DNA from: Candidatus Altiarchaeota archaeon
GTDB lineage: Archaea > Altiarchaeota > Altiarchaeia > IMC4 > SCGC-AAA252-I15
DNA: 64,000 nucleotides
NCBI GenBank assembly: GCA_043800705.1
Contig: JAZDMS010000010.1
Coordinates: 2,570 to 66,569 of the forward strand
Direction of reading: 5' to 3'
This document shows positions 20,069 to 64,000 of this stretch, in pieces. Made by a program: the position numbers and the translations under genes. Position 1 is the stretch's first letter. Every line of letters begins with the position of its first letter. A model generated the notes under the pieces. The model made no database searches. It was not told where the DNA came from and saw only the letters and a list, made by a program, of their open reading frames with translations.

Positions 20069-20210
20069 TAGGTAAATACGCAACTGTCAACCTGATCGTT
20101 TAAAGGGTATTACTCTAAGCTGATACCTTAGGTAGAACCCATTCACCACGCTGGTTTGGTTGTTGGTCTGGCTTTCCTACGCTATTTTTCCATAATTTTT
20201 TTTAGGCCTT

Positions 20211-20341: not shown

Positions 20342-20366
20342 TGCGGTTTTACTTGTATTGTGGCTG

Positions 20367-21572: not shown

Positions 21573-21860
21573 TTGTCTCTTGTTATGCGTTATCCTAAGC
21601 AGCTTGGGCGGATGGGGAGGTCGAGGCGGGGCAGCATATTTCTCACGAACCCTAGGGGTGAGTCCTTCAACGTCCACCAGACCGTGGCCTATATCTGGGA
21701 TAATGCGTCCGGTTCGAAGACGATCCAGGAGATATCCGACTCGCTGATGGAGGCCTTGCAGGTGAGGGAGGAGGACCGTGAGGGTGAGCGGGAGAATGTC
21801 CTCCTGGCGTTTAGGGATTTGGAGCGCAAGTCCCTGATAGAGTACAGGGTCGGGAAGTAG
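21573..21860 (+). CDS. PqqD-like peptide chaperone (RiPP recognition element)
   Basis: SFNVHQTVAYIWDNASGSKTIQEISDSLMEAL...VLLAFRDLERKSLIE matches the PqqD pattern. Confidence 0.6.
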   Translation: MSLVMRYPKQLGRMGRSRRGSIFLTNPRGESFNVHQTVAYIWDNASGSKTIQEISDSLMEALQVREEDREGERENVLLAFRDLERKSLIEYRVGK

Positions 21861-21893
21861 GCCGGTCCGGTCTGTCGAGGCCGCTGATATCGT

Positions 21894-25026: not shown

Positions 25027-25052
25027 TTTCAGTGTATATTTAATGCCCCCCA

Positions 25053-25060
25053 TTATATAA
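25053..25060 (-). promoter_or_regulatory. TATA box TTATATAA about 27 nt upstream of the tbp ATG (leaderless-type promoter)
   Basis: The reverse complement of 25027-25070 reads cgcTTATATAAtggggggcattaaatatacactgaaaATG. Confidence 0.4.
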
Positions 25061-25063
25061 GCG

Positions 25064-25717
25064 ATGATCGTCGTGGACTCGAGCAGCGTGATTTCGCTCG
25101 CAGTAAACTGTCTTTGTTCCGTCCTTGAGCAGTTCGGGACCGGTTTCACAATCACACCGAAGGTCTATGAGGAGATAATCACAAGGCCTTCCGGAAACCG
25201 GCGTTTCTCCCTGGAGTCCATGCGCATCAGGCGGCTCGTCTCATCGGGAGCCGTTATTGTGCAGTCGCCCAAGACCGGGCTCTGCGACGATGTCATTTCC
25301 GCAGCCAACAGGATATACTCCATCAGGGGGCGGGACCTGAAGATCATCCACCCCGCCGAGTCCGAGGCGATCGGCTTGGCTGGGGAGATCGGGGCGAAGG
25401 CCCTCCTGATAGACGAGCGCACTACGAGGCTCCTCGTCGAGGACCCGATCGAGCTCAGGGACCTCCTCTCGTACCGCAACAGGGCCGAGGTGAGGATAAA
25501 CGAGGCATGGCTTCGGAAGCTGAAGGACGTCATGCCGAAGATGCCGATTATCCGATCAGCTGAGATAGTGGCCATAGCCTATGAGAAGGGGTATCTGACG
25601 AGGCTGCACGACGTCGAGGACAAGGGCGTCCTCACCGCCGCGCTCTCAGCCTTGAAGTATTCCGGCTGCGCGATAACGTGGGAAGAGATAGAGGAGTACC
25701 AGAAGGCCGTCATCTAG
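25064..25717 (+). CDS. PIN-domain-like protein with a C-terminal extension
   Basis: MIVVDSSSVISL start and ALLIDERTTRL acidic motif. Confidence 0.45.
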   Translation: MIVVDSSSVISLAVNCLCSVLEQFGTGFTITPKVYEEIITRPSGNRRFSLESMRIRRLVSSGAVIVQSPKTGLCDDVISAANRIYSIRGRDLKIIHPAESEAIGLAGEIGAKALLIDERTTRLLVEDPIELRDLLSYRNRAEVRINEAWLRKLKDVMPKMPIIRSAEIVAIAYEKGYLTRLHDVEDKGVLTAALSALKYSGCAITWEEIEEYQKAVI

Positions 25718-38577: not shown

Positions 38578-38892
38578 CTAGAGGTGCTTCTGCAGCTTGG
38601 CCAGCATCTTATCCTTTGGTAGCGCTCCGACGATCCTGTCCACGAGCTTGCCATCCTTGAATACGAGCAGGGTGGGTATGCTCATGACCTGGTATTTCAC
38701 CGCAGGCCCCTTGTGTTCGTCGATGTTGACCCTGTAGAAGGAGGCCTTGCCCTGAAGCTGGCCGGACAACTCCTCCATTAAGGGGGCTATCATCATGCAC
38801 GGCCCGCACCAGGGCGCCCAGAAGTCCACGACGACCAAGCCGCTTGATGCGGCTTGGTCGAACTCGGACTCCGTCAGCTCTCGTACTGCCAT
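38578..38892 (-). CDS. trxA: Thioredoxin
   Basis: WCGPC active site. Its start overlaps the upstream gene's stop by ATGA. Confidence 0.85.
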   Translation of the reverse strand: MAVRELTESEFDQAASSGLVVVDFWAPWCGPCMMIAPLMEELSGQLQGKASFYRVNIDEHKGPAVKYQVMSIPTLLVFKDGKLVDRIVGALPKDKMLAKLQKHL

Positions 38893-40661
38893 CAGCATCC
38901 GCCCGTGGCTGCAACTCCTCCGGTTGAGCCGCTGAGTGTCTTCTCGCAGCCTGCCCATCCCTGGTTGTACAGGCAGAGGTTGGTCTTGATCGCGTCCGCT
39001 GCGATGCCCTGGAACTTGTATTTGTTGTTCGCAAGCCATGTCGGGCTGCCGGTCACGGAAAGCTGCTCTGTTAAGGCGAAGCTCTCCTTGAGGAGGTTCT
39101 TGCCTTCTTCGCCTTCGGCGCATGTCTTGAGCTTGGCTGCGTCCATTCCGTTGTCTGTCGCGCACTTTTGCCAGTCGCCCTTCATGTCGGCGTTTCTGCA
39201 CCATATGTAGTCCATATAATCGAAGTTGTTGGGGTAGTTCTTGATGGCGCATATCTCCCTAAGATCCTCGTCGACTTCCGGCTGTCCGTGGAGGCTGGTA
39301 AACGTGCCTTTCGCCTCGTTGTATGTGCCTATGAAGTGGATGTCGAATTTCAGGTCATTGAAGGTGGCTATGACCTCCTTCATCGAGTTCAGGGCCTGCA
39401 ACCCGTACGGGCACTGGCTCATCACGAACACGTCGAGTTTCTTCGGTATCTCCTGCCTGCAGCTCATCCTGCCCTTGCACAGGTCCTCGCTGCAGTGTTC
39501 GTTCGTGGCGTCGCAGTACGGGTCCCATGTGGCGCCGATCTTCAGGCTCATGTAGTTCCCCGCCTCAAAGAGGTAGTTCTTTACGTCTGCGTAGCCCGGG
39601 TCCTGCGTGACCTTCTTCTCGAAAAGGAACGCTGGCAGGAGTTTGACCTGTGTGGCGTCATAGAGCGACTTGCCCTCCGGGCTGGAATAGTCCAGGTTCT
39701 TTATCTGGACCCCCGGGAACATCGTCTTGAGCCTGCCTTCGAACATCGTCGTGTCACAGCTCTTGCAGAGCTTGTCGCTCAATACGGTGACCTGGAAATC
39801 CAGGGGCTTGGGAATTTTATCGCATGCTTCGGGCTTGACTGCGAGGACCCCGCATATTGCCCTTATGAAATCCGCCTCCTTTCTGCCGCCGTTATATGCG
39901 TTCCCGTTGAGGAACATCGTCGGGCTGCCTCTTGCGCCCGCACTCGTGGCAGCCTCCAGGGAGGCCTTGAGGAGCTGCTTGCCTTCGTCGCCCGTGGAGC
40001 AGGCCGTCATCTTAGCGACGTCCATGCCGCTGCCTGTTGCGCATGATTCCCATGCGGTGCTTCTGATGTTCTTATCCCTGCATACTACGTAGTCCATCCA
40101 TTTGTAATCCTGCGGGTAGTATTTCATCGCGCACAGCTCGCGGATGTTCTCGTCGACTTCCGTCTGGCCGTGTAGGCTCTCGAACTTGCCGTCGCCTGCG
40201 TCGTCGGCTATGTAGTTTACTGTGAGGTCTATTGAGCCGCCCATCTTCTTCAGCACGGGGGCTATCGCATCCAAGACCTGCACCCCGTATGGGCACTGGC
40301 TCATTATGTAGAAATCCAGTTTTGCCTTGTCGCCGGTCGCGCGCGCCGGTTGGGTCGTGCCCGGTATGCTCGTTGTCGTCGATACCGTTGCATCGTCGCC
40401 AAGGTTTGTTAGAAGCAAGTATCCGATGGCGAGCACTGCGATGACGAGTAAGGCTGCTAACGCCTTTTCAAGGGGGAATGCGTATCCGGCGCCAGCGTCC
40501 TTTGCGGCCTTAGCGTGCGTGGGTGCCGCTTCGACCTTGTGTTTGGCTGGGGTTTTCCTTGGTGCGCGCCTTTTTTTGGCTTCCGCCTTGCGCGTCGTCT
40601 TCGCTTTTATCTCGACTACTGGGCTGGGTGTTCCAATATCTGTATTCTCTTCATCCGCCAT
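38892..40661 (-). CDS. Membrane-anchored protein with two tandem GILT/DsbA-like thioredoxin-fold domains
   Basis: Lys-rich cytoplasmic N-tail, one TM, then duplicated domains each with MSQCPYG, LHGQxEVDExxRExC (GILT-like CQHGxxECxxN) and a GSPTxFxNG cis-Pro region. Confidence 0.5.
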   Translation of the reverse strand: MADEENTDIGTPSPVVEIKAKTTRKAEAKKRRAPRKTPAKHKVEAAPTHAKAAKDAGAGYAFPLEKALAALLVIAVLAIGYLLLTNLGDDATVSTTTSIPGTTQPARATGDKAKLDFYIMSQCPYGVQVLDAIAPVLKKMGGSIDLTVNYIADDAGDGKFESLHGQTEVDENIRELCAMKYYPQDYKWMDYVVCRDKNIRSTAWESCATGSGMDVAKMTACSTGDEGKQLLKASLEAATSAGARGSPTMFLNGNAYNGGRKEADFIRAICGVLAVKPEACDKIPKPLDFQVTVLSDKLCKSCDTTMFEGRLKTMFPGVQIKNLDYSSPEGKSLYDATQVKLLPAFLFEKKVTQDPGYADVKNYLFEAGNYMSLKIGATWDPYCDATNEHCSEDLCKGRMSCRQEIPKKLDVFVMSQCPYGLQALNSMKEVIATFNDLKFDIHFIGTYNEAKGTFTSLHGQPEVDEDLREICAIKNYPNNFDYMDYIWCRNADMKGDWQKCATDNGMDAAKLKTCAEGEEGKNLLKESFALTEQLSVTGSPTWLANNKYKFQGIAADAIKTNLCLYNQGWAGCEKTLSGSTGGVAATGGC

Positions 40662-51205: not shown

Positions 51206-51526
51206 ATGGGCCGCTCGAGGGATAAGGGGGAGCAGAGGGATATTGCGCTCGAACGCGTCATGTTGCTTCTTGCCCAGGCCGAGTCTTTGGCGTCTGGGGG
51301 CGATCCGGGTTCAGCGTCTTCGAGGGTGAGGCTGGCGAACAGGATATGTCTCCGTTTCAATCTGCGCCTTCCGCCTGTTTTGAGGCTGCGGTACTGCCGC
51401 GGGTGCCTGTCGTATTTCACGTTATCGAATTCCCGCCGCAGGCTGGATCCGAGGAATCGGAGGCTTGTGGTCAGATGCCTCGCCTGTGGTAGATGCGCAT
51501 ACCGCCCGTATTTCAAGAAGGCTTAG
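51206..51526 (+). CDS. rnp4: RNase P protein component 4 (Rpp21/Rpr2)
   Basis: Zn ribbon CRGC...CLAC and about 105 aa. Confidence 0.65.
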   Translation: MGRSRDKGEQRDIALERVMLLLAQAESLASGGDPGSASSRVRLANRICLRFNLRLPPVLRLRYCRGCLSYFTLSNSRRRLDPRNRRLVVRCLACGRCAYRPYFKKA

Positions 51527-54500
51527 TCTTCTTCTTCACGAAACTTGTGATGTTGAGCATCAGCTTCTCGGCTGGTGACGGGGTCTTTGGCTGATTCGGC
51601 TCTGCGGCCTGCGGGGGTTTTGTTGTCTGTGCGGGAGGCTCCTGAGGCGGCGTTTTCACTGGCTCTTGCGGTTTCTTTTCATCCTTAGGTATGAGGGTTA
51701 TCCTGTGGCGTATGCCCTTCTTGCCTGAGCCGGCCGACGGCTGCGGTATTTGAGGCTTCGGCTGCTGGGGTATTGTCTGCGGGGCTTTTGGCGGTATTGT
51801 CTGGGGTTTGGGTTGTTGGGGCGGCGTCTGTTGCATCGGCTGTGTTGTCTGCTGTTTGGGTTGTTGGGGTATTGTCTGCGGGGCTTTTGGCGGTATTGTC
51901 TGGGGTTTGGGTTGTTGGGGCGGCGTCTGTTGCATCGGCTGTGTTGTCTGCGGCTTAGGCTGCATCGGTCTCATGGGGCCCGACTGCGTTGTGGCCGGCC
52001 TGGCCACCGGTTGTGTAAGTGGTCTCTGCATCTGCGGCATCGGGAATTTACCTGGAGGCTGCGGCTTGTATCCAGGCTGCGGCATCGGCGGCCTCTGAGG
52101 CTGGCCTGGCATCCTCGGCGGCAGCTGCCCCGGCGGAATCGGCCTGTACTGTCCCTGCGGCATCTGCTTGTATTGCATTGATACTGTCGACGGCTGTTTC
52201 TTGAGTATGATCGCTGCTGCGAGGATGAGGAGCGCGATGGTGACTACTACCGTAGAATTCATCCATCCCGAGGATGAGGTCGTCGGGGTCTGGGCTTTGT
52301 TCGAGTTGTCGATGATCTTCCTCGCCTTGGCATATCCGGCATAGTCTCCGCTTTCGTTGAACTTCCTTGACGCGTTCTCCGCGTATTCGGCGGCCTTCTT
52401 GAAATACGCCCCCCTCCAGTACAATTCCGCGTCGTTGTAGAGCATATTGGCCTCATACATATTGTTGGCTTTCTGGTAGAGCTTCAGCGATTTTTCGAAT
52501 CCCTCCGCGCTCGTGTTCTCGAACCATTTCATGGCCTCCTTCGCGTTCTCTGTCGCGTTTTCGAAGCTGCTCCTGTTGAGGGCTGCGGCCGCGGCGGCAT
52601 ATGATTCATCGCCTTTTATGGTGTCTACGGTCCTGTCAATCTTCGCCATATCCTCGGTCCTTCCCGCAAGTTCGAACGATTTTTTCGCGAATCCGAGGAG
52701 CATCTTGGCGGTATCGAGCCTGCCTTCCTTCAGCGCGCTCATCCCGTCCTCGTAGTACGTCTGCGCATTGTCCTGGTTTTTGGTGATTACTGTGAGATTC
52801 TGGCATTTAATGATGCCTTCGGTGTCGTTCAGGCTCCTGAAGAACGTCTTTGCGGCTTCGATGTATACCGACGCGTTGGAGTGCAGTCCGCTGTCGAAGT
52901 AGTATTTTCCTTCGAGGTAGTATTTTTCGGCCTCGATCCTGCGGAAGAGTATGTCGCTCCTGTCCATCCCCCCCGTGTCGTTTACCTGCCTGTAAGTTTC
53001 GGCCGCCCTCTGCAGCTGCTGCCCTGCGTCTTCGAAGTCGCCTTGCTCGTAGAGTCTCTGCGCGTCCTGGAGGATCCTGTCCGAGTCGATGCTCTCCAGG
53101 AGGTCGTCGCATTTGTCTATGCCCCTGATGTACTTGACCTTCGCGTATATCTCGCGGGCCTGGTTGATGAGGGGTATGGCTTCCGCGAAGTTGCCGACTC
53201 CCTTTTGTTCGAGGGCTTTGAGGTAGAGTGCGTCGCCTACCCCTATGCTCCTGCCCCTTCTGTCCCCGAATAGGTAGACTTTTCCGTTATCTGAGCCGAT
53301 GGCTATCTCCGGGGACCCGTCGCCTGTGAGGTCCGCGACCGCCGGCGATGACCTGACCGCGGACCCGGTATCGTGGCTGAACCTCCGGACGCCGGGGTAG
53401 TCGACGATGTAGAAGCTGCCTTCGTTGCTGCCGAATATGACCTCGATCGTGCCGTCGCCGTCGAGGTCGGCTAGCGCAGGGGAGGATTCGATCGGCTTGC
53501 TGAGCGTATACGTCCTGTTGTCCGTCCCGTCGGAGTTGACGAAATGGAGGTTTTTATCGCCGGCTCCGACTGCCAGCCCGTATCCTCCTTCGGGGAACAC
53601 GTCCCCGACCGCCGTGGATGATCTGATCGGACTGTCGATCGTGTGATTCCACAGGAGTCCGAGGCCGCTCAGGCTGATCGTGTCGGTGCCCCACACATCG
53701 TCTACCCGGACCCTCCTCGTCTCGGCAGTGCCCATCCACTGTATCTCCAGCCTGTATATCACTCCGTCCTCGGAGCCGACGATTATCCTCCCGGATTCGT
53801 CTATGGTCGGGGTCGCGCTAATGTCCCCCTTCGTAAGGTACTGCCAGACCTTGTAGGGGGGGTATTTCAGGACATAGATGATGTTGTCCGCTGAACCGAT
53901 GATGATCTCGTCTTTCCCGTCGATGTCGATGTCGTATATGGCTGGCGAGGAGTCGATCTTGTCCAGCGTCTTGTACGACCAGTCCTCGACTCCCTTGGAG
54001 TTGAGGGCGTATATCCTTCCATCCTCGGATCCGAACACTATCTTGTTGTCGGACTGCGGGTCGGTCTCGATGAGTGCGGGCGAAGACCTGACAGGCCCCC
54101 CCGTGGAGAAGTTCCATATGTGCCTTCCGCGGCTGTCCAAGAGGTAGAGCCTGCCGTCGTCGGAGCCGATGAGTATTTCGGTCTTTTGGTCTTTGAAGAC
54201 GTCAGCCGCGGTCGGCGACGACCTGACCGGCCCGCCGGTCTTGAACCTCCATTCAACCTCGCCCTGATAATCCAGGGCATAGACGTATCCGTCGGCGGAT
54301 CCGAACACGATCTCCTTGATGCCGTCCATGTCTATGTCTGATATCACCGGCGAGGACTCGACCTGGCCCCCCGTCTGGTAGTCCCAGAGGGCTCCGAAGT
54401 CGCTCATGTTGCACCAGGTTTCCGCGTCGCTCTCCCCGGTCCGCAGGAAATTCCCCCTGAACGTGGGCCAGTCTGCGGCCGCGGCGTTCTGTGCCAGGAT

Positions 54501-54533
54501 TAGTAGGATCGCGAGGTATGGGGCGCTTCTCAT
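51513..54533 (-). CDS. Large surface protein (signal peptide, PQQ-like beta-propeller repeats, a helical/TPR-like region, one TM helix and a Pro/Gln-rich repetitive tail)
   Basis: N-terminal signal MRSAPYLAILLILAQNAAAA. Repeats of the BamB/PQQ type (DGxxYALD...W). TM VVVTIALLILAAAIIL. The tail consists of QPKPQT-like repeats. Confidence 0.7.
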   Translation of the reverse strand: MRSAPYLAILLILAQNAAAADWPTFRGNFLRTGESDAETWCNMSDFGALWDYQTGGQVESSPVISDIDMDGIKEIVFGSADGYVYALDYQGEVEWRFKTGGPVRSSPTAADVFKDQKTEILIGSDDGRLYLLDSRGRHIWNFSTGGPVRSSPALIETDPQSDNKIVFGSEDGRIYALNSKGVEDWSYKTLDKIDSSPAIYDIDIDGKDEIIIGSADNIIYVLKYPPYKVWQYLTKGDISATPTIDESGRIIVGSEDGVIYRLEIQWMGTAETRRVRVDDVWGTDTISLSGLGLLWNHTIDSPIRSSTAVGDVFPEGGYGLAVGAGDKNLHFVNSDGTDNRTYTLSKPIESSPALADLDGDGTIEVIFGSNEGSFYIVDYPGVRRFSHDTGSAVRSSPAVADLTGDGSPEIAIGSDNGKVYLFGDRRGRSIGVGDALYLKALEQKGVGNFAEAIPLINQAREIYAKVKYIRGIDKCDDLLESIDSDRILQDAQRLYEQGDFEDAGQQLQRAAETYRQVNDTGGMDRSDILFRRIEAEKYYLEGKYYFDSGLHSNASVYIEAAKTFFRSLNDTEGIIKCQNLTVITKNQDNAQTYYEDGMSALKEGRLDTAKMLLGFAKKSFELAGRTEDMAKIDRTVDTIKGDESYAAAAAALNRSSFENATENAKEAMKWFENTSAEGFEKSLKLYQKANNMYEANMLYNDAELYWRGAYFKKAAEYAENASRKFNESGDYAGYAKARKIIDNSNKAQTPTTSSSGWMNSTVVVTIALLILAAAIILKKQPSTVSMQYKQMPQGQYRPIPPGQLPPRMPGQPQRPPMPQPGYKPQPPGKFPMPQMQRPLTQPVARPATTQSGPMRPMQPKPQTTQPMQQTPPQQPKPQTIPPKAPQTIPQQPKQQTTQPMQQTPPQQPKPQTIPPKAPQTIPQQPKPQIPQPSAGSGKKGIRHRITLIPKDEKKPQEPVKTPPQEPPAQTTKPPQAAEPNQPKTPSPAEKLMLNITSFVKKKTKPS
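51767..51964 (-). repeat. Near-perfect 99-bp (33-aa) in-frame tandem duplication inside the PQ-rich tail
   Basis: ggggtattgtctgcggggcttttggcggtattgtctggggtttgggttgttggggcggcgtctgttgcatcggctgtgttgtctgc occurs twice consecutively. It encodes QTTQPMQQTPPQQPKPQTIPPKAPQTIPQQPKx twice. Confidence 0.7.
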
Positions 54534-54569: not shown

Positions 54570-55283
54570 GTGAAGATGAGAAGCGTCAGCGGTCGGGGGC
54601 AGAGCGGCATCGAGCTCATCGTCGGCGTGGCACTCATCCTGGTGGTCTTTTTAATCGTGGTCCTGATGGTCATGGACAAGACCGCAGAGACCTCGAGGGT
54701 AAAAAGTCTCATCGACGCGCAGAGGGTCGGTGTCAGCATGAGGGACAACATCAACATGATAAACGATGAGGGTCCGGGATACTATGCCTACGTCTCGATT
54801 CCCGAGCGCATCCATGGCGGATACGAGTACGACATCATTGCGAGGAACAATGTCCTGGAGATCGTCTGGGAGGACAACGCGTGGACGACGAAGGTCATTC
54901 CCACGAACGTGACCATATACTGCCTCGACAAGGGTTACACCCTTAAAAACAGGATATTCTACGGCTCTGAAGGCATCGAGGTGACCTGCAACCGCCCGAA
55001 TCTGAGAGTCGTTCCTCACACCGTCGTCAGAACCCCTGGCAAGACCACAATCGACGTAGTGAACGACGCGCACGTCGACGCAGGTATTTTCAGGACGAGA
55101 TTCCAGACCAACTCCACGCCCTCGACATCATTCGCTGTCACGGCGGGGCTTGCTGCGGGCGATACTACAACCCTGGAATTCAACCTGCAAGCCAACAACT
55201 TCACATATTTCGCCGTCGACTATCTCGGCGACGTAAACGAGAGCATCGAATCCGACAACGGGATGAACGAGACCCTATCATGA
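54570..55283 (+). CDS. Type IV pilin-like protein with a class III signal peptide
   Basis: RG|QSGIELIVGVALILVVFLIVVL has Q at +1, E at +5 and a hydrophobic helix. There are many N-x-S/T sequons. TATA-like ttaattaat about 28 nt upstream. Confidence 0.6.
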   Translation: MKMRSVSGRGQSGIELIVGVALILVVFLIVVLMVMDKTAETSRVKSLIDAQRVGVSMRDNINMINDEGPGYYAYVSIPERIHGGYEYDIIARNNVLEIVWEDNAWTTKVIPTNVTIYCLDKGYTLKNRIFYGSEGIEVTCNRPNLRVVPHTVVRTPGKTTIDVVNDAHVDAGIFRTRFQTNSTPSTSFAVTAGLAAGDTTTLEFNLQANNFTYFAVDYLGDVNESIESDNGMNETLS

Positions 55284-55822
55284 AGCCAAATTCGGATCAA
55301 GGGCAGATGTTCAGCGGCGAGTTCATCCTCGGATTCATCCTGTTTGCCGTTGCGTTCGCCATGATGATCTCCCTCTGGGACACGACGACACGGGACGTCC
55401 TGCGGGCCGAAAGCATCAGGGAGATGAACGACGCAGCAGTCAACGCAGCGGAGACGCTCGTCAGGACGCCGGGCGTGCCTTCGGATTGGAACCGGTCGAA
55501 TGTCGCCTCCCTCGGCCTGGCCAACCAAAGCAGGATACTACACCCACTGAAGGTGAAGGAATTCGTCCATTACATGAGCACGAACGAGACCGGCCTCTGC
55601 GGCTCCGAGAAAAACTATCAATGCAACCTGCATATGCTCGGCCTCGGCGGATACGATTTCATGATGAACATATCGTACGTCAACGGGACGACCGTGAACG
55701 TGAACGGGACGCCCGCCTACGTCGGCCGCCCGCCCGTCAACGAGACCGAGCGGATCACGGTGCTTCGGACGACGATATTAAACGATGAAATAACAAGACT
55801 ATACCTGACGGTGTGGAAATGA
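55280..55822 (+). CDS. Type IV pilin-like protein with a class III signal peptide
   Basis: DQG|QMFSGEFILGFILFAVAFAMMISL. ATGA-coupled to the upstream gene. Confidence 0.55.
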   Translation: MKPNSDQGQMFSGEFILGFILFAVAFAMMISLWDTTTRDVLRAESIREMNDAAVNAAETLVRTPGVPSDWNRSNVASLGLANQSRILHPLKVKEFVHYMSTNETGLCGSEKNYQCNLHMLGLGGYDFMMNISYVNGTTVNVNGTPAYVGRPPVNETERITVLRTTILNDEITRLYLTVWK

Positions 55823-58800
55823 AAAGGGGGTATGCCATTATCCTGGACGCCGTGGTGGCGCTGACCTTCGTCCTGGTTATCATGGCGTCATTTCTCGGGA
55901 TCGTAAAGACGTCGTCAATCGTCTCCGAATCCAGCATGGTGCGGCTCCACTACGTATCCGAGGACGCGCTGGACGTGCTGAACAAGAAGGGCGTCCTAGA
56001 CTATGTCGGCGAGGAGTGGGCTGCGGCGGACGGCAACCGATCGAGCGGCCATTTCGCGAACGCCAACCTAACGTTATCGTCCTACCTGGAGCGCATCCTC
56101 CCCCCCAACGTCGGCTACCGGATCACGATAGACGACGATGTCGTCGCGGAGAACATCAGCCGGATCCCCCTGGATTCGTCGACTTCCCTGACCCACTCCA
56201 CCCGCCTGCTCGTCGGATACGGCAAAGGCCTTCCAACCCGGGGGAACGTCGCCAGGGCGGCATTGAACAACATCAAGGAGAAGGAAACCTCATCGTATAC
56301 GTACTTCGGGGGCTTCGTGGGGGAGGGCAATATAACAGTCTACGTCCGCGACATACCAGCAGACGCTGACATACTCAGCTGCTGCCTTGAGGTGAACACG
56401 CCATCGGACTACGACCTGTACATCAACGACCAGCTCGCAGGATCTTTCTCCCCCGTTTCATCGAGCGACATGTCTGCTACATTGAGGGACCGCTCCCAGA
56501 CCGGATGTCCCGTGCCTTCCGGCACCGGCAGCGGCTGCGTTGCGGGATGCTCACCCCTCATCTCCCCCGGCGAGGACAACGAGTTCGAGATCAGGTTTAC
56601 TGGCTCCGACATCAGCGAACAGTACGTCGGAGGGGGATACATCCACGTCCTGTACAACACAAACACCATGGACACCGACGAGGCTGTGAAGATGTCGAGG
56701 TACTATTTCCCGGGAATCGACGGCATCATCAACCTCTACGACTCCTTCTACGTGCCAGGGAGGCTTCAGTCCATGGATGCTAGGATACGGTACAAGAGCA
56801 ACTACTCCACATTCCTGGACATCGGCGACATCACCGTATTCAACTCAAGCGGAGGGGACCCCGACTGGCAGGAGGTCAACATATCCGACAGCAACTTCTT
56901 GACCATGGGGTTCATCTACTCGTCCGGCGGATTCCCCCAGGACCTGACATCGCTGAGCATGAACACCGTGCCGCTGAGGTTCGGCTCCAAGAACATCAGC
57001 CAGGTCATAGCGTCGGGGAACGCCGACGTCGTACTGATAACCGACGTCTCCGGCAGCATGGCCTGGCGCATCGGATACACGGACAGCACTTCGGGCACGA
57101 CCCGCGACTGCAACAGCCCGAACCTTTACGACGCCGACACCAGACGGATCAGCCTCGCGAAATGCCTCGACAAGCAGTTCATCAACACCGTCATGAACAG
57201 GAGCGGCAACAGGATGGCGCTCATATCCTTCGACGACCTCGCGGAAGCCGACGGCAGAAACCCGTACCACCTGACCGACGCGCAGAACAACGCGAGCCTC
57301 ATCGCCCAGATAAACAGCTACTCCAACAGCCCCTCCGGGGGGACATGCATATGCTGCGCCATAAATCTGGCATACGAAATCCTGCAGGCCGAACGCGACC
57401 CCGGAAAGGACGCATACATCATCGTCATGACCGACGGCATCGCGGGGAAGAACTGCGGCGGGTGCAGCTACGGCAGGGGCCCGATATTCACATCGAGCTT
57501 CGAGGACGCATCGGAAGCGTCAAGCTGGATGGTTGACCCTGTCAGGACGACGGCGTCCACGGGCTATTATTTCGGCATGTCCGACAACGGCTCAATCGGC
57601 GCGCATACGGGGGACAGCTACCTCGGAATCTGGGGCAACTTCACGGGATATCTCGTCCTAAACAGGACCAAGATCGACATATCCAACTATACCGACGTAA
57701 ATGTGAGCGTCTGGTACAGCTACGAGAGCACGGAATCGACCGACCGGTTGGCGTTCCTGTACTGGAACGGGACGCGCTGGAGGACGGTCTTCAACATAAC
57801 GAACCCAAACATCGGCAACGGGAACCAGGCCGCATGGCGCAACGCCTGGGCCCTCATCCCCTCGACCGTCGAGAACCTGACCCTCCAGTTCATGGGCAGG
57901 ACCGACAACACCTCCGAGAGGGAGCATGTGATGATAGACGACCTAGAGGTTCAGGGGCACGGCCTGTACACATGCGACAGCTGCGGCGGCAATTGCTCGA
58001 GCAAGACGGGGACGGACAGCTGCGGCGGAAACCCGTCGGACTGCTACAACAACGCATGCTATCCCGCCATATACGACACCATATGCTCCGCCAAGCGGGC
58101 GCACAACGACCTCGGCGCGGAGATCCGGTCAATCGGCTTCGGCCCAGCGACGGTGGGATGCCTGACCGCGGAAACCACGCTAATGGGCGTCGCAACATGC
58201 GGCGAGGGCGATTACTGCCCCGGCGGGAACGCCACAGCCGCGGCGTCATGCTATCTGAACTTCTCCACCCAGATATTTGACTCCTCAACGAGGAGCCAGT
58301 CCATCGTGTTCGGCGGCGCCTTCGAGGAGAGCGTCCTGGACCCGATCTCCTACATAGAGTTCACATTCGAGCCGGAGAACAGGTCCTCATACGGGGAAGT
58401 GTCGCTCAAGCGCTCCACATGCAGGTTCGCAGATACCGTCTCCTGCACCGGTGACATCGCAGTCCCGTCAGGGGCCGTCGTCTCGGACGCCAAGGTCACC
58501 TCATACTCCGGCCCCCAATGGACGGATTACGTGACCCTCGCATCGAGCGGCTCCCCCGACACGGTATACAACCTCGGAGCATGGGGCTCGGGATATCAGG
58601 TTCTCGGCGACCCTTTTATCGTCAACATCCCGGTCGAATACGTGGAATCCGACGTCAACAACGAGATATACGTGCGGACAGGCAACAGCTCAAGCTCCCC
58701 TACGGGATGCTCTCCCGACGACAAGGCGATATACACCCTCCGGATGCACACGATGGCGGGATACGGGGACGTCTTCCAGGACAACATCGGCTGCAACTGG

Positions 58801-59079
58801 ACGATACAGTTCGAGGACGACACATCGTTCACCTCCCCGCTGCCGTCGTCCTACAACGGCTCGGAATCATGCTACTTCACGAACGCCAGCATAGACTACG
58901 CCGACGACGACGCGATGAACGACGCCATCTACCGACTTCTCGTCCAGCTCGACCTGGACCGCAACGGGAAGGTCGACCTCCTCTTCGACCCGGCGATGAT
59001 AGAATTCGAACTCAGCCAGGCCAGCGGGATACAGTCCCTTTGGGGGCCGGCGAAATTCAAGCTCATAGTGTGGATGTGA
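55813..59079 (+). CDS. Large secreted adhesin-like protein: a pilin-like N-terminal anchor, a von Willebrand factor A domain with MIDAS motif, and lectin/MAM-like jellyroll domain(s)
   Basis: VLITDVSGSM...IIVMTDG (DxSxS...T...D). The N-terminus is KRGYAIILDAVVALTFVLVIM. There is a WxxxDDLEV-type jellyroll region. Its start overlaps the upstream pilin gene. Confidence 0.7.
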   Translation: MEMKRGYAIILDAVVALTFVLVIMASFLGIVKTSSIVSESSMVRLHYVSEDALDVLNKKGVLDYVGEEWAAADGNRSSGHFANANLTLSSYLERILPPNVGYRITIDDDVVAENISRIPLDSSTSLTHSTRLLVGYGKGLPTRGNVARAALNNIKEKETSSYTYFGGFVGEGNITVYVRDIPADADILSCCLEVNTPSDYDLYINDQLAGSFSPVSSSDMSATLRDRSQTGCPVPSGTGSGCVAGCSPLISPGEDNEFEIRFTGSDISEQYVGGGYIHVLYNTNTMDTDEAVKMSRYYFPGIDGIINLYDSFYVPGRLQSMDARIRYKSNYSTFLDIGDITVFNSSGGDPDWQEVNISDSNFLTMGFIYSSGGFPQDLTSLSMNTVPLRFGSKNISQVIASGNADVVLITDVSGSMAWRIGYTDSTSGTTRDCNSPNLYDADTRRISLAKCLDKQFINTVMNRSGNRMALISFDDLAEADGRNPYHLTDAQNNASLIAQINSYSNSPSGGTCICCAINLAYEILQAERDPGKDAYIIVMTDGIAGKNCGGCSYGRGPIFTSSFEDASEASSWMVDPVRTTASTGYYFGMSDNGSIGAHTGDSYLGIWGNFTGYLVLNRTKIDISNYTDVNVSVWYSYESTESTDRLAFLYWNGTRWRTVFNITNPNIGNGNQAAWRNAWALIPSTVENLTLQFMGRTDNTSEREHVMIDDLEVQGHGLYTCDSCGGNCSSKTGTDSCGGNPSDCYNNACYPAIYDTICSAKRAHNDLGAEIRSIGFGPATVGCLTAETTLMGVATCGEGDYCPGGNATAAASCYLNFSTQIFDSSTRSQSIVFGGAFEESVLDPISYIEFTFEPENRSSYGEVSLKRSTCRFADTVSCTGDIAVPSGAVVSDAKVTSYSGPQWTDYVTLASSGSPDTVYNLGAWGSGYQVLGDPFIVNIPVEYVESDVNNEIYVRTGNSSSSPTGCSPDDKAIYTLRMHTMAGYGDVFQDNIGCNWTIQFEDDTSFTSPLPSSYNGSESCYFTNASIDYADDDAMNDAIYRLLVQLDLDRNGKVDLLFDPAMIEFELSQASGIQSLWGPAKFKLIVWM

Positions 59080-59084
59080 TATAT

Positions 59085-61733
59085 ATGAAACGGAAAGGGA
59101 TGTTTTTCACGATATCGATAGTCCTGCTGGTAGTCCCGCTCATACTCTTCGTCGCATACTACTACACGTCCACGCAGACCAAGGTCCAGGACACGATATC
59201 AAAGGTCCGCTGCGACGAACTCCACTACTTCGTCGAAGACGTCAGGGAGGACATGGAACGGGCGCTCGTCATATTCGGCCGCAGGGCAGCCATCTATGCC
59301 CTAAGCGATGTCGTGGAAAAGGGCAGCTCCCTTGGCGGGTACGTCTTCAACTGCACCTCCACCTGCCGACTCGACTGCTCGAAGTTCGCCTTCGCAGTCA
59401 ACGGATCGGAGGCGGCGATCGCGGAGCTCTCCGTCTGCGGCACCCTCTACGGCAGGAACGTCTCGTACATGGCCAACCACACCCTCTCCCAGTGGATAAC
59501 CCGCATCGAAACCCACGGCTCGGACATGCACTTCAACGTCAGCATAGACCTGAAGAGCGTCGAGCTGGCGATGAGCGACCCGTGGACCTTCCACTCGTTC
59601 ACCAACAGCACGTTCAAGGTATACGACGAGGCCAAAGTCTGCTACTTTGTCGGCGACAGCGTGACGACGTCGTCGGCTACGTCCATCCTCGGCCTCGAAG
59701 ACCCCCTCTTCCCGCTTTACACAGGCGGCCAGATGGACAAATACATGCTGAATTGCACCGTCCCGATCATCCTCCAGCTCAAGGCCGGATGCAGCGCTGA
59801 CCCCGATTCGCCGGGCAACGGGACCGCCTCCGGCTACGTCGTCTTCGACTCCGATATCGGGGACGCTGACACATACTGCCAGAACACCCCCGGCATCAAT
59901 GGCCAGATCCTCGTCCTGGACGGCGGCTTCGGCAGCTGCAACGCATACGAGGGCGACTGCTTCAACGCAAGCAGCCCCAACCACTTCGCAGGCGTCTTGG
60001 ATTACGGGCCCAACAATCCTCAGAGCTTCATCAACAAATGCGATGTCACCATACCATGGCTCATGGACACCGGAGACATAGACGACGAGGCTCCAAGGAG
60101 CCCGCCAAGGAGGGTGCCGTCATGCGCCGGCGGCGACATAGCGGACGGCGAATGCATACAGCTGAGGAACAGCGGCCTTTGCGGCATACACGACATCCTG
60201 CTGGGGTGCCCGTCCGACAGGGTCAACACCACCTGCTACCAGGCAAGCAACGCAAGCCTCATGGGCGGCTTCGACGGGCCGAGCTTCTTCGACAGGCTCG
60301 ACGGGAGCCTTAGACTTGGAGAAAAATACCTCAACCAGAGCATGCTACATTTCAACACGACCCTGATAGGCGTCGAGACGCTCGTCAACCCCTACGTCCT
60401 CGACGACCACGACGTCAAGGTGAAATCAAACGCATCCTGGGTCGACTACCTTTACTGGAACGGAACGTACGGCTGCGCTGCCATCGGCACCTGCTCACTC
60501 GACGAATACAACTTCCGCTTCGACGACCCGCACGCGAGCATATACTCCGTAGACACCTCATGCGTGAACGTCACCGGCTGCGGAATATCGGAATCCTGCG
60601 TGGACGACGTCGACGAGGACCTCGACGGCCTGCCGGACTGGCTCGACCCATCATGCGCCGGCAGCTTCGCGGAATGCGGGACCATAATATCGTGCGACCC
60701 GACCGACAGCGACTACTGCGGGACATGCGACTACCAAAGCCCCAAGCCGATAGCGGAAAACACCCAGGCAACGTGCCTCAACTACGGATACAACGACACC
60801 GAATGGCACTTCTACTCGGTGACGCCGACCCAGGACGGCCTCTTAACCGTGAGATTCAACGGCACAGCCACCCCGACCGGGAACAAGAAAACAGACATGG
60901 TCGTATACAACTACACCGAAAGGGGCTGTTCGATCCCGGTCGAGCACGATTTCGACATGGAACGCAACTACGAGAATGCATTCTGCGTCGGCGCAGGCCA
61001 GACGTACGTCGTCGCCCTCGACTCGGACAGCGTATACGGCGAAAACGGCGCATACAACCTCTCCGTAACGCTGACGCCTGGCAGCCCCTCATGCCCCGCC
61101 GCTCCCTCGACCATGGAGTCGACATCCTCATCGTCGATCGCCGGCTCGTCGTCCTACTCCTCCAGCAGCATATTCAGCACCTCAAGCTACAGCTCAAGCT
61201 CCGCCAGCAGCTCAAGCAGCGTGCCATGCGGCTTCTTCGACGACATGGAAGACTCAGACAACGGCTGGACCCACGACGGAGCCAACGAGGACTGGGAGCG
61301 CGGAACCCCAACATGGCTGTCGGCAGACGGCAAATACGCATACTCCGGGACAGACTGCTGGGCCACAAACCTCAACGGCAACTACGCCAACAACATGAAC
61401 GGGACCCTCCTAAGCCCCCCCATATACATCCCCGCATCATCCTCCCCCCTCCTCCTGTTCCACGTCAAATACAGCATAGAATACTACAACTCCGGAACCG
61501 GGAAGGGGGACCGCGGATTCGTGGAAGCATCGTCTGACGGGATCAACTGGGACCGGCTGGGCGTCTACTCCAACACCGTATCCGACCAGTCACAGAACGG
61601 CTGGATACAGAAAACATACTCCCTCGACCCCTACCGGGGGGGCAATGTCCGGTTACGATACCGGCTCAGGTCCGACGGGAATATACGCCGAGCCGGCCTC
61701 TACATAGATGACGTAAACGTCACCTGCTCATAG
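59085..61733 (+). CDS. Large Cys-rich secreted protein with a Ser-rich linker and a C-terminal MAM/choice-of-anchor-J-like jellyroll domain
   Basis: The start is taken at MKRKGMFFTISIVLL; the upstream part of the listed ORF is a shadow frame of the preceding gene. About 50 Cys. Poly-Ser linker, then ...DCWATN...LLSPPIYI...RLRY...YIDDVNVTC. Confidence 0.6.
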   Translation: MKRKGMFFTISIVLLVVPLILFVAYYYTSTQTKVQDTISKVRCDELHYFVEDVREDMERALVIFGRRAAIYALSDVVEKGSSLGGYVFNCTSTCRLDCSKFAFAVNGSEAAIAELSVCGTLYGRNVSYMANHTLSQWITRIETHGSDMHFNVSIDLKSVELAMSDPWTFHSFTNSTFKVYDEAKVCYFVGDSVTTSSATSILGLEDPLFPLYTGGQMDKYMLNCTVPIILQLKAGCSADPDSPGNGTASGYVVFDSDIGDADTYCQNTPGINGQILVLDGGFGSCNAYEGDCFNASSPNHFAGVLDYGPNNPQSFINKCDVTIPWLMDTGDIDDEAPRSPPRRVPSCAGGDIADGECIQLRNSGLCGIHDILLGCPSDRVNTTCYQASNASLMGGFDGPSFFDRLDGSLRLGEKYLNQSMLHFNTTLIGVETLVNPYVLDDHDVKVKSNASWVDYLYWNGTYGCAAIGTCSLDEYNFRFDDPHASIYSVDTSCVNVTGCGISESCVDDVDEDLDGLPDWLDPSCAGSFAECGTIISCDPTDSDYCGTCDYQSPKPIAENTQATCLNYGYNDTEWHFYSVTPTQDGLLTVRFNGTATPTGNKKTDMVVYNYTERGCSIPVEHDFDMERNYENAFCVGAGQTYVVALDSDSVYGENGAYNLSVTLTPGSPSCPAAPSTMESTSSSSIAGSSSYSSSSIFSTSSYSSSSASSSSSVPCGFFDDMEDSDNGWTHDGANEDWERGTPTWLSADGKYAYSGTDCWATNLNGNYANNMNGTLLSPPIYIPASSSPLLLFHVKYSIEYYNSGTGKGDRGFVEASSDGINWDRLGVYSNTVSDQSQNGWIQKTYSLDPYRGGNVRLRYRLRSDGNIRRAGLYIDDVNVTCS

Positions 61734-61777: not shown

Positions 61778-63319
61778 ATGACAGAAATCAAGGCCAGACT
61801 TCTGGGGGGTGTACAGGAAAAAAAGAAGACCGGCGCCGAGAGGCTAAAGTCTATCCTGGAGGAGATAAAAACCAGAGGCACCGTCACGGAAAGCGAACTT
61901 GCCAAAGCCACAGAAATTGACAAGGCCGCCCTGAAAAAATACATCAAATACCTCAGCGACAACGGCCTGATAACCATACAACGGCGGTTCTTCAGGGCGG
62001 CTGAAATATCCGCCGCCGGGGGCAGAACCATGAAAACCCCCCCAAAACAGGAGGAACGCCCCCCGGAACCCTCCACGGAGGAAACAGCCGCAGAAGAACC
62101 CGACAGGGAGGAAAAACCTCCGCCTGCCCCGCCACAAAAAACGGGGGAAAATCAGGCACCTGCATCTGAGCCATTGCCTGAAAAGGAGCCGCCCGCCGAA
62201 CAGCCCCCCAAGGAGACGGAATCCCAGAAAACCGACCTGGAACCGAAAAGCCCCCCGATACAGGGAGGCGAGAAGGTCATACCCGCCACCGAAGCCGAAC
62301 TGAAGGAAGTGTGCGAGAGCCTCGTAACCGACTTCTTAGGCGTCATACGCCTCTTCGGAGAGATCCAGGGCAAATCGTACACCGCAGGCCTGCTCATAGA
62401 CAAGGGAGACATCATAGCATCCTCATTCGAGCACATGGACACGGTCGAGATCCTCTACGGAGACGAAGCCCTCAGACAGATGCAGGAGAAATTCTGCGGC
62501 ACCAGGGGAGACCTCGAGATCTACGAGCTGTCCGAGGAAGACCTCAACGAGTCCCTCATCAAGAACATCAACTACCTCCTCACCACCCCGATAAAGCTCT
62601 CGACCCTAAAGATAAAGATAAAGACGACAACCCCCCCTCCCGAGGAGAGACGATACATGTTCTCGAACCTCGCGTGCATGTTCAACCGCCCGGACCCCAA
62701 AGCCAAGGAAGAAAGGATGACGGTGCTGAAGGAGATGAAAAAGCGGAGGGTCGAGAAACTCAGCGGAGGACTCAACCTCGTCGACTTCGCAAGAAACCTC
62801 GTATTCGACCCTGCGAAGGCGAAACGGTTCGAGGAGCTGAGAAAGGCCATGCAGAAGACCGCGCCGGAACAAGGCCGCGAAGACCCCCGCAAGGCCGCAA
62901 GGTTCGAGGAATTGAAAAACCAGCGGATGCTGCTTAAGGGCATCATCCCCCAGCAGGGCGGTCCCATGTCCAAGGAAGAACGGATCGAAAAATTCAAACA
63001 GGAGCACAAACCAATACAGGCCCTGCCGGAGAAGCTGGACAAGATCCCTGTAAAAGCCGTCAAGGAGGGGAAAAAGATAGAGACGAACATCGACAGATTC
63101 TACGATTACGTCAAAAGCAATGGCAAGCTGAAGCTCAACGACGCACTGTCGCTAAAATTGAAGGTCAGCAAGACCCAGCTCGAAGCCTGGGCGATGATAC
63201 TGGAGGAGCACAGCCTCCTGGAACTCCGATACCCGACGATCGGGGAGCCTGAAGTCGCATACAACGCCCCGGAAAAACCGGTAAAAACGGATGATGCAGA
63301 TGGCAGAAAAAAAAGATAA
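61778..63319 (+). CDS. wHTH-domain protein with a Pro/Glu-rich linker and a C-terminal helical domain
   Basis: TVTESELAKATEIDKAALKKYIKYLSDNGLI wHTH at the N-terminus; a second HTH-like segment near the C-terminus. Confidence 0.5.
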   Translation: MTEIKARLLGGVQEKKKTGAERLKSILEEIKTRGTVTESELAKATEIDKAALKKYIKYLSDNGLITIQRRFFRAAEISAAGGRTMKTPPKQEERPPEPSTEETAAEEPDREEKPPPAPPQKTGENQAPASEPLPEKEPPAEQPPKETESQKTDLEPKSPPIQGGEKVIPATEAELKEVCESLVTDFLGVIRLFGEIQGKSYTAGLLIDKGDIIASSFEHMDTVEILYGDEALRQMQEKFCGTRGDLEIYELSEEDLNESLIKNINYLLTTPIKLSTLKIKIKTTTPPPEERRYMFSNLACMFNRPDPKAKEERMTVLKEMKKRRVEKLSGGLNLVDFARNLVFDPAKAKRFEELRKAMQKTAPEQGREDPRKAARFEELKNQRMLLKGIIPQQGGPMSKEERIEKFKQEHKPIQALPEKLDKIPVKAVKEGKKIETNIDRFYDYVKSNGKLKLNDALSLKLKVSKTQLEAWAMILEEHSLLELRYPTIGEPEVAYNAPEKPVKTDDADGRKKR

Positions 63320-64000
63320 GGAAGCGAAGGAGGCCGAAGTGCTGGACAGCTATGAGCTGGAGGCCGATGGGATAAAGACCCCCGTCCAGATAGTAATGAA
63401 GGACTTCGTCCCCCATTACAAGCTCATACTCCCCGAACTCGACGTCGCTACGATCGCGCTCATGGACGACATAAAGGACCGGCTCATATCCGGGGTTGAG
63501 ATGAGCACCAGCGAAATACTCGACCCCAAACAGCTCGGCCAGCTGACGAAGGAATTCTCTAACAGCGCCGACACCATCATAAACGAGGAACTGGGCAGCC
63601 TCAACGAAGACGTCAAAAAACACCTGGTCCACCGCATGCTCCACGAGCTCCTAGGACTCGACGAGATAGAATACTTCCTCTCCGACCCCAACCTCGAAGA
63701 GATCATCGTAAACTCCGCGTCGGAGCCGATAAGGGTCTACCACAAGAAGTGGGGCTGGCTCCTGACCAACATCACCCCTGTCAGCGAGATGCGGATACAG
63801 AACTACGCCAACACGATAGCGCGGCGCGTAGGGCGGGAAATAACGACATTGAACCCCCTCCTGGACGCCCACCTTGTCAGCAAGGACAGGGCGAACGCGA
63901 TACTCACGCCGATCGCCACCAAGGGAAACACCATCACCATCAGGAAATTCGCCCGCGACCCCTGGACAGCGACGGACTTCATTAACTCAGGCACCGCGTC
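63300..64000 (+). CDS. Type IV pilus/archaellum-family secretion ATPase (FlaI/ArlI/PilB-like), N-terminal part, 3'-truncated by the window end
   Basis: The ORF is open to the window end. EPIRVYHKKWGWLLTNI...DRANAILTPIATKGNTITIRKFARDPW aligns with the FlaI N-terminal domain (GHVYIVHKVFGPMRTSI...GSNLTVRKFSRVP). Confidence 0.8.
   Translation, partial: MAEKKDKEAKEAEVLDSYELEADGIKTPVQIVMKDFVPHYKLILPELDVATIALMDDIKDRLISGVEMSTSEILDPKQLGQLTKEFSNSADTIINEELGSLNEDVKKHLVHRMLHELLGLDEIEYFLSDPNLEEIIVNSASEPIRVYHKKWGWLLTNITPVSEMRIQNYANTIARRVGREITTLNPLLDAHLVSKDRANAILTPIATKGNTITIRKFARDPWTATDFINSGTA

Follow-up and report, generated by a model that had tools for sequence, protein, structure and literature searches.

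Why does a protein of more than a thousand residues with a domain of the von Willebrand factor A (VWA) type stand among the pilin-like genes of an archaeal pilus operon? The question is raised by a gene, here called g3, near the end of a 64,000-nt stretch of DNA from Candidatus Altiarchaeota archaeon (GCA_043800705.1, contig JAZDMS010000010.1, positions 2,570 to 66,569 of the forward strand), which we refer to as the window. An initial annotation, made from the letters of the sequence, had described g3 as a VWA protein with a pilin-like N-terminus and as an analogue of the tip adhesin PilY1. On balance we favor the view that g3 encodes a subunit of modular and minor-pilin-like build for an archaeal type IV pilus, acting in a tip or initiation complex with the products of the neighboring genes g1, g2 and g4. 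In the following we describe the VWA domain and the scaffold that carries it, the N-terminus and the operon, compare the protein with known pilus adhesins, and weigh the alternative explanations.

The VWA domain and its nested jelly roll

The reading frame originally reported, 55813 to 59079 on the plus strand with 1088 aa from a GTG codon, exists, and its start moves by 6 nt to the ATG at 55819, which gives a product of 1086 aa. This ATG is the better start because the same length is found in the NCBI protein P0001 from a Candidatus Altiarchaeota metagenome-assembled genome (MAG), because homologues begin with MKRGY, MRRGY or MKKGY, and because the codon forms an ATGA overlap with the end of g2. 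P0001 matches the 1086-aa product at 100% identity and over its full length, and is annotated as “vWA domain-containing protein” and nothing more.

The g3 product carries a VWA domain with a complete metal ion-dependent adhesion site (MIDAS), which is not a chance motif. Pfam PF13519 (VWA_2) matches with an E-value of 5.9e-8 and 33.7 bits against a cut-off of 27, and the MIDAS, first placed about 400 residues from the N-terminus, consists of D409-V-S411-G-S413, T509 and D539. Across 60 diverse homologues with 33–60% identity to g3, D409, S413 and D539 are invariant while S411 and T509 are kept in at least 90%. When 10 diverse homologues were scanned, eight scored above the cut-off for VWA_2 and/or VWA, one gave a sub-threshold match only and one gave none. 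The AlphaFold2 model of g3, built with a 60-sequence family alignment (mean predicted local distance difference test score, pLDDT, of 86.2), has a VWA fold in this region with block-mean pLDDT values mostly of 81–96. A Foldseek search of the Protein Data Bank (PDB) returned Streptococcus sanguinis PilB among its best matches (7b7p/7ba2, E 6e-8 to 4e-7, probability 1.0), together with the vWA pilus adhesins Mfa5 (6tnj) and SpaC (6m48) at probability 1.0 and RrgA (2ww8) at 0.96. The fold first read from the motif is thus also found in the predicted structure. Three cysteines stand directly behind the MIDAS threonine (GGT-C510-I-C512-C513, 57343-57360), each present in 83–92% of members, and a further conserved one, Cys546, follows the MIDAS aspartate. 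These four residues could form disulfides that stiffen the MIDAS loops, or they could form an extra metal site.

The VWA domain is itself interrupted. About 10 residues past the MIDAS aspartate, in the loop between beta4 and alpha5, it is split by a jelly roll of the MAM/CBM-like type, predicted to be all-beta, after which a Cys-rich linker leads back into the domain. Judging from known VWA topology the insert would lie at the ligand-binding face. A Pfam scan of the insert alone gave no match. Foldseek relates it at probability 1.0 to the MAM domains of neuropilin (5l73) and meprins and to CBM22 and CBM4-2, and it also matches the K1 adhesin domain of the gingipain Kgp; these fits have a root-mean-square deviation of 4–9 Å over approximately 150–187 columns and, for single-domain targets, a target-normalised TM-score of 0.5–0.65. 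The insert had been likened from the start to the C-terminal domain of the next gene, g4. That likeness is real as a matter of domain type and weak at the level of sequence: BLASTP aligns the two with an E-value of 0.003 over 48 aa of the last strands (IDDLEV vs. IDDVNV), and hhalign of two small profiles gives a probability of 45% with E 2.2e-4 over 98 columns. The likeness need not stem from recent duplication inside the operon.

A conserved carrier with exchangeable cargo

A point which the initial annotation missed is that the VWA domain is itself a swappable cassette in a conserved scaffold. Conservation in the family reaches beyond the VWA domain and is highest over the first 400 residues and the final 255. 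Sequence comparison points to a constant carrier, made of the N-terminal module, two beta-sandwiches and a C-terminal domain, that is loaded with exchangeable cargo. The clearest cases are four members of 637–656 aa that have no VWA domain at all, in which the equivalent of residues 1 to about 390 is joined straight to that of residues 832–1086; one of them, P0063 (644 aa), stands at the place orthologous to that of g3 in an Altiarchaeota operon with full synteny (locus L080). The loop after the TDG motif varies as well, from 11 to 342 residues across the family. It consists of about 63 Cys-rich residues in most members, reaches 228–236 residues with the jelly roll only in the six closest homologues, and measures about 330 residues in a Micrarchaeota clade, where the one member scanned has a BNR/YCF48-like match.

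The two beta-sandwich or jelly-roll-like domains that AlphaFold2 places ahead of the VWA domain have weak Foldseek matches to double-jelly-roll proteins (E ≥ 2e-4), and the glycines G164, G165, G168, G170, G272, G273 and G302 are invariant here throughout the family. The C-terminal domain, modeled mostly as beta strands with one helix, closes with the strand AKFKLIVW (residues 1078–1085, 59050-59073), in which W1085 is invariant; W1075, G1076 and P1077 just before it are conserved in at least 90%. Essentially all full-length members, from 637 to 1700 aa, finish with ...SLWGPxxxKLxVW, then 0–5 residues, and then the stop codon.

Several features of the protein are of extracellular type. There are 27 N-X-S/T sequons in g3, compared with 12.2 ± 3.0 in shuffled sequence (2.2-fold), and 28 cysteines, many of them conserved. 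Elsewhere in the window (38892-40661, minus strand) a 589-aa protein with two thioredoxin-fold GILT/DsbA-like domains is encoded, and a GILT-domain gene is also found near the operon in another Altiarchaeota locus (L001). The oxidoreductase gene, the sequons and the cysteines are consistent with an oxidised and glycosylated extracellular g3 protein. The product has neither a Sec-type signal nor a C-terminal anchor, its C-terminus being the conserved beta strand, and a search of the whole protein against PDB sequences gave only a chance-level match to HdrA (Fe-S region, E 0.47).

A word-indexed search recovered 231 homologues of g3, and in a species-representative genome set relatives were confirmed at no fewer than 443 of 599 pattern-matched stretches. 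The 76 loci kept from the genome set are all from MAGs, mostly labelled Altiarchaeota, Micrarchaeota, Aenigmatarchaeota, Woesearchaeota or Nanoarchaeota. Homologues are annotated as “VWA domain-containing protein”, as “hypothetical protein” and, once, as “Mg-chelatase subunit ChlD”. Family members were also seen on short contigs binned as Candidatus Coatesbacteria and Candidatus Kaiserbacteria (L032, L072), which are probably mis-binned DPANN or Altiarchaeota contigs and not a sign of transfer to bacteria.

The N-terminal pilin-like module

The N-terminus of g3 reads MKRG/YAIILDAVVALTFVLVIMASFLG (YAIILDAVVAL...; the slash marks the end of the leader), that is, a basic leader of 3–4 residues ending in K/R-G with the hydrophobic helix directly after it. 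At least 90% of homologues keep G4, D10 (position +6) and A14, and nearly all of the 60 aligned have a basic residue before G4. In the AlphaFold2 model one helix of about 53 residues spans positions 4–56 with a kink near residue 30, its first 25 or so residues being hydrophobic; two short helices follow and then four strands (99–104, 107–112, 124–131 and 142–149). The order of these elements in residues 1–150 matches, in the model, that of a type IV pilin. The hydrophobic helix is too long and the shape is wrong for a Sec signal. The pilin-like character attributed to this N-terminus from the beginning is accordingly retained, in the sense of a class-III leader with a helix of about 25 hydrophobic residues and an acidic residue at +6, and not a conventional Sec signal. 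We infer that the leader is cleaved at KRG/Y and that the protein is incorporated into a filament.

The module extends beyond the VWA family. Exhaustive HMMER searching with a profile of residues 1–135 found 940 cluster representatives, 327 of them at E ≤ 1e-10; in nearly all of the 150 matches listed the module lies at the extreme N-terminus, in proteins from 83 to 2350 aa. The word-indexed search with the N-terminal profile returned only four fragments. Scanned in isolation, the g3 module matches DUF7262, a family whose function is unknown, at 28.6 bits against the Pfam cut-off of 27, and module scans of 20 members gave DUF7262 in five, DUF7288 in five and Pilin_N in one (weak, E 0.01). DUF7262 was considered as proof of pilin identity and dropped on account of its unknown function and its sub-threshold score in full-length scans.

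The pilus operon

From 54570 to the end of the window the plus strand holds a compact row of genes, g1 to g5 followed by a sixth gene, and this row makes up an operon for a type IV pilus (type IV filament) (Table 1). The products of g1 to g4 all start with a short basic leader, a glycine and a long hydrophobic stretch. The N-terminus of g1, ...SGRG/QSGIELIVGV, is of class-III type, and its C-terminal beta domain is CARDB-like (Pfam CARDB, E 7e-5); g1 homologues are present in 37 of the 79 related loci. For g2, Pfam offers a weak match to DUF7287 (E 0.045). In the hydrophobic helix g1 has its acidic residue at +5, g2 and g3 have theirs at +6, and g4 (MKRKG/MFFTISIVLL) lacks one, as do the g4-like N-termini listed from other loci. 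In bacterial systems the top-most tip pseudopilin, GspK, typically has no conserved glutamate, a parallel that we take as a lead only. The C-terminal domain of g4 matches Pfam InhA-like_MAM (E 2.6e-8) and the NCBIfam choice-of-anchor J model (E 3.6e-5).

Table 1. Features of the pilus operon and of the g3 product (residues in the 1086-aa numbering)
Feature	Position	Strand	Description
g1	54570-55283	+	237 aa, pilin-like; alternative start ATG 54576
g2	55280-55822	+	180 aa, pilin-like; N-terminus ...DQG/QMFSGEFILGF, Glu at +6
g3	55819-59079	+	Modular protein, 1086 aa; third of four pilin-like genes
g3, N-terminal pilin-like module	55819-56268	+	Residues 1–150; AlphaFold2 and conservation
g3, two beta-sandwich/jelly-roll-like domains	56278-56991	+	Residues 154–391; AlphaFold2; part of the conserved scaffold
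g3, VWA domain	57016-58302	+	Residues ~400–545 and 745–828, split by the nested insert
g3, MIDAS	57043-57057; 57343-57345; 57433-57435	+	D409-x-S411-x-S413; T509; D539
g3, nested MAM/CBM-like jelly roll	57466-57987	+	Residues ~550–723; all-beta in AlphaFold2
g3, Cys-rich linker	57988-58050	+	Residues 724–744, after the jelly roll
g3, C-terminal scaffold domain	58312-59076	+	Residues 832–1086; mostly beta strands and one helix (AlphaFold2)
g4	59085-61733	+	882-aa partner protein; Ser-rich linker, C-terminal MAM-like jelly roll
g5	61778-63319	+	513 aa; winged helix (Pfam HTH_11, E 1.3e-5) and DUF2226 (E 8e-6)
Pilus assembly ATPase, 5' part (T2SSE/PilB/ArlI family)	63300-64000	+	Start ATG 63300 or 63291; runs past the window end

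The genes are tightly joined. Both the g1 stop with the g2 start and the g2 stop (55820-55822) with the g3 start form ATGA overlaps, the second of which had been noticed in the initial annotation and taken as a sign of stoichiometric co-expression with the minor pilins; the overlap and, with it, coupled expression are supported, and the stoichiometry is unproven. Between g3 and g4 the gap is 5 nt, and a Shine-Dalgarno-like motif, GGATGTGAT, can be read ahead of the g4 start. In L001 all three junctions between the pilin-like genes are 4-nt overlaps. In g5 a Pro/Glu-rich linker connects the winged-helix DNA-binding domain to DUF2226; in Altiarchaeota loci, L001 and L080 among them, this gene always separates the ATPase gene from the pilin-like ones. 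Here and in L001 the end of g5 runs about 20 nt into the start of the ATPase gene. Its product may regulate this operon specifically or help assembly from the cytoplasm. The partial product of the sixth gene aligns with the PF00437 (T2SSE) gene at the matching position of these two syntenic Altiarchaeota loci, from which the genes beyond the window end were read: there, the T2SSE gene is followed by two PF00482 (T2SSF) platform genes.

The neighborhood is conserved across the family. A g2-like gene lies directly upstream of the g3 homologue in 47 of the 71 loci with room for it, a g4-like gene directly downstream in 48 of 62, and an ATPase gene within 8 kb in 44 of 79. In a Woesearchaeota locus (L002) the VWA protein follows three small class-III proteins and precedes a g4-like protein of 321 aa, behind which lie two nearly identical PilA-like genes (152 aa, MKKGQAAMEF...), with the ATPase, two platform genes and KaiC-like ATPases on the divergent strand. 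On a 1.56 Mb Altiarchaeota contig (L003, 4855-14999) the VWA protein and its partner occur as two tandem pairs. In a Micrarchaeota locus (L081, 1804-11261) the gene directly upstream of that for the VWA protein encodes P0235, a CARDB protein of 1940 aa that shares the N-terminal module.

Comparison with known systems

PilY1, the analogue originally named, is not a pilin; it has a conventional signal peptide and docks via a C-terminal beta-propeller. Like PilY1/PilC, g3 encodes a large adhesin-type protein together with minor pilins, and the operon backs the notion of a pilus-associated adhesin. PilY1 is nevertheless not the closest analogue, and g3 more closely resembles TadG/CpaL and S. sanguinis PilB. 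Homology to PilY1 was rejected: g3 has no PilC/PilY1 propeller (PF05567/IPR008707, none at E ≤ 0.1) and its N-terminus is class-III-like. An N-terminal vWA domain is reported for the P. aeruginosa protein (as cited in PMC8179133), and a C-terminal strand matters for the formation of the tip complex (PMC13533445).

A separate propeller protein is encoded divergently upstream of the pilus operon (51513-54533, minus strand), and nothing ties it to g3. This protein of 1006 aa has a typical Sec-type signal (MRSAPYLAILLILAQNAAA/A), a PQQ/FG-GAP beta-propeller, TPR-like helices in its middle, a transmembrane helix at the C-terminal side and a tail rich in Pro and Gln; in the part of the gene that encodes the tail, 99 bp are perfectly duplicated in tandem (51766-51951; 1.9 copies, 100% match). 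The divergent arrangement recurs in L001 and L080, with homologues in seven of the 79 loci overall; in L003 the large opposite-strand gene upstream has no Pfam match. By analogy, a functional tie between this protein and the pilus is conceivable because the docking domain of PilY1 is a propeller.

In the bacterial Tad system the minor pilins TadE, TadF and TadG assemble into tip complexes; the large TadG serves as their backbone and bears a modular domain, and specificity differs between paralogous tip sets (PMC12075869). The middle region of CpaL/TadG, about 470 residues, is dispensable, as CpaL without it still piliates, whereas the C-terminal strand, which completes the protein's own N-terminal pilin-like sheet, is needed for piliation (PMC13533445). 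The g3 family shares with TadG/CpaL a large size, an N-terminal pilin-like module, genes for smaller minor pilins at its side, a removable middle as seen in the natural VWA-less orthologues, paralogous sets as in the two tandem pairs of L003, and a conserved beta strand at the extreme C-terminus. It differs in its archaeal hosts, in the two extra beta-sandwiches and the 255-aa C-terminal domain of its scaffold, and in having no TadE/Tad Pfam match (PF07811, PF13400), so that the analogy is one of architecture only.

Like S. sanguinis PilB, g3 joins an N-terminus of pilin type to a vWA domain whose complete MIDAS is flanked by extra elements, and is a predicted tip adhesin. PilB is much the simpler protein, 420 aa in the crystal with the vWA domain appended after a canonical pilin module, whereas the VWA domain of g3 is inserted within a larger scaffold and itself bears a nested jelly roll; g3 also has no bacterial N-methylation motif, and sequence identity is about 12%. 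The pilus-tip proteins RrgA (2ww8), SpaC (6m48) and Mfa5 (6tnj) likewise combine vWA and MIDAS with arms or domains inserted near the MIDAS, but they have no pilin-like helix and are assembled in unrelated ways, by sortase linkage or type V strand exchange.

Among archaea, the nearest counterparts are the DUF2341 proteins of clade 1/Epd-type loci, which are large adhesin-like proteins with class-III signals (PMC4858521), and the “adhesin-like” proteins recorded in archaeal type IV pilus loci by a 2026 census (bioRxiv 10.64898/2026.04.22.720090). They resemble g3 as large secreted proteins that are encoded among minor pilins beside an ATPase and two TadC-like platform genes, and their role at the tip is assigned by analogy; g3 has no DUF2341 match. 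Neither paper describes a pilin-like family that bears VWA: the only archaeal VWA proteins in the former survey are cytoplasmic ArnB-type regulators (PMC4858521), and the latter names neither VWA nor Altiarchaeota (bioRxiv 10.64898/2026.04.22.720090).

Proposed role of g3

If g3 is a minor-pilin-like subunit, its action may be pictured as follows. A prepilin peptidase whose gene lies elsewhere in the genome would cut off the basic leader MKR-G, and the hydrophobic helix with its aspartate at +6 would first hold the protein in the membrane and then join the helical core of the filament. The conserved scaffold (residues 1–400 and 832–1086) would bear the exchangeable cargo. In the VWA cargo the intact MIDAS would bind a carboxylate of the ligand via a divalent cation, as in integrin I-domains and vWA pilus adhesins, and the jelly roll in the loop of the MIDAS aspartate could add or tune specificity at the binding face, perhaps for glycans. 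The tip would be the only sterically plausible place because of the size of the protein, as has been argued for PilB (PMC8179133).

A more specific proposal, which we put forward tentatively and think rather doubtful, is that the g3 family plays in archaea the part that the “licensing” subunit PilK/GspK/TadG has in bacteria. The near-invariant C-terminal strand (...KLxVW-COOH) would fold back, complete the protein's own N-terminal sheet and so prime assembly, and the exchangeable middle, be it VWA, VWA with MAM, VWA with a BNR propeller, or nothing, would decide to what Altiarchaeota and the episymbiotic DPANN attach, host cells included. The VWA-less orthologues, the conservation of the very end of the protein, and the dependence of two strands on the length of the model hint at strand completion of the TadG/CpaL kind: strands 124–131 and 142–149 are predicted only when residues beyond 400 are included, and the pLDDT of block 141–150 is 48 in a model of residues 1–400 vs. 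86 in the full model. Covariation analysis (mutual information with average product correction) between the N-terminal 170 and the C-terminal 80 residues, with 199 sequences and an effective number of 167, placed no inter-region pair in the top 40, which are dominated by indel and clade effects.

Alternative explanations

A number of observations weigh against a pilus subunit. In the scan of full-length g3 DUF7262 stays below threshold (23.4 bits), and full-length scans of 10 diverse homologues gave neither a pilin nor a DUF7262 match. Foldseek with residues 1–400 finds no solved pilin in the PDB, and the profile of residues 1–135 meets PDB sequences at chance level only (a methyltransferase, E 0.28). 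To our knowledge the FlaFind pattern does not accept tyrosine at +1, and the N-terminal helix fits an uncleaved signal anchor equally well. Motif searches of the window and the 79 related loci did not find a prepilin peptidase gene; the operon has no obvious major pilin gene, and the window's sole further gene for a filament subunit belongs to the archaellin family and lies 30 kb from the operon. In addition, every member of the family comes from a MAG and is known from sequence alone.

The missing pilin fold match and the missing peptidase gene would be expected if g3 were a membrane-anchored accessory protein, held by an uncleaved signal anchor and serving as an assembly or anchoring factor at the pilus base or as a cell-proximal adhesin, and not as a filament subunit. 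A chain of 1086 aa is also sterically awkward in a filament except at its tip, and a view cited by Makarova et al. gives TadG the task of anchoring the pilus to the membrane (PMC4858521). However, an anchor hardly explains the near-invariant glycine, preceded by K/R, at the boundary between leader and helix, nor the conserved aspartate within the helix; the gene stands within a run of pilin-like genes with coupled starts; and TadG/CpaL has recently been placed in the tip complex and not at the base (PMC13533445, PMC12075869). We regard an anchored accessory protein as unlikely, though a serious competitor to the pilus subunit.

A large, Cys-rich and sequon-rich protein of extracellular type with adhesion-type domains might also be an independent surface adhesin or an S-layer-associated protein, self-exported and merely co-located with the pilus genes, the more so as archaeal type IV filament loci often hold large adhesin- or S-layer-like proteins (PMC4858521; bioRxiv 10.64898/2026.04.22.720090). 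Mere co-location sits poorly with a gene order that is tight across phyla, keeps g3 beside its pilin-like neighbors and, both in the window and in L001, includes overlaps of 4 nt, and self-export sits poorly with the absence of both a Sec-type signal and a C-terminal anchor; we find this explanation improbable. A cytoplasmic ArnB-type VWA regulator of pilus or archaellum expression, suggested by the link that Makarova et al. draw between archaeal VWA proteins and type IV pilus regulation (PMC4858521), is ruled out by the N-terminal transmembrane helix, the 2.2-fold excess of N-glycosylation sequons and the 28 cysteines with conserved positions, and it would leave a fold that matches extracellular adhesins and an operon without an FHA or MoxR partner gene to be explained.

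Other features of the window

The archaellin-family gene (23751-24341, minus strand) has a Pfam Arch_flagellin match of E 1.4e-28 and an N-terminus of MRTKNKG/STGVGTLIIFIAVILVAAVAA. It adjoins the gene for TATA-binding protein (TBP; 24481-25155), and the open reading frames (ORFs) scanned around it encode TPR/PMT_2, TBP, methyltransferase and SMC proteins, none of which is an archaellum gene. Its product could be the missing major subunit of the operon, or it could be part of an archaellum encoded elsewhere. The 527-aa product of 34010-35593 (plus strand) contains NUMOD3, a DNA-binding motif characteristic of homing endonucleases, four times (E 7e-30). The region 18001-22000 has a G+C content of 0.44–0.49, compared with about 0.56 elsewhere, and contains a tRNA gene (18590-18672); no ORF of at least 150 aa is listed between 19221 and 21893. 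It may be an integrated element or island.

Implications for Altiarchaeota and DPANN

Modular pilins and tip adhesins give simple type IV filaments their specific functions, a principle which is established and has been worked out only in bacteria. What is new here is an archaeal family with a carrier-plus-cassette build, a nested domain, an invariant C-terminus and a breadth that covers Altiarchaeota and DPANN. Our literature searches (DUF7262, DUF7287 and DUF2226; DPANN or Altiarchaeota pilin with VWA) found no paper describing the g3 family. It would give archaea a defined counterpart to the bacterial systems, with a constant carrier, natural cargo swaps and cargo-less orthologues.

The family is also a candidate for the surface or host attachment of Altiarchaeota and DPANN. 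Our literature search found no paper describing a pilus adhesin of this kind. Beta-strand addition in the tip complex has recently been proposed to be ancestral to all type IV filaments (PMC13533445), and the invariant C-terminal strand of the g3 family allows this proposal to be tested in Archaea. If the licensing proposal is true, Archaea too would license their tip complexes by adding a beta strand, and DPANN would have in this family a concrete candidate determinant of host attachment.

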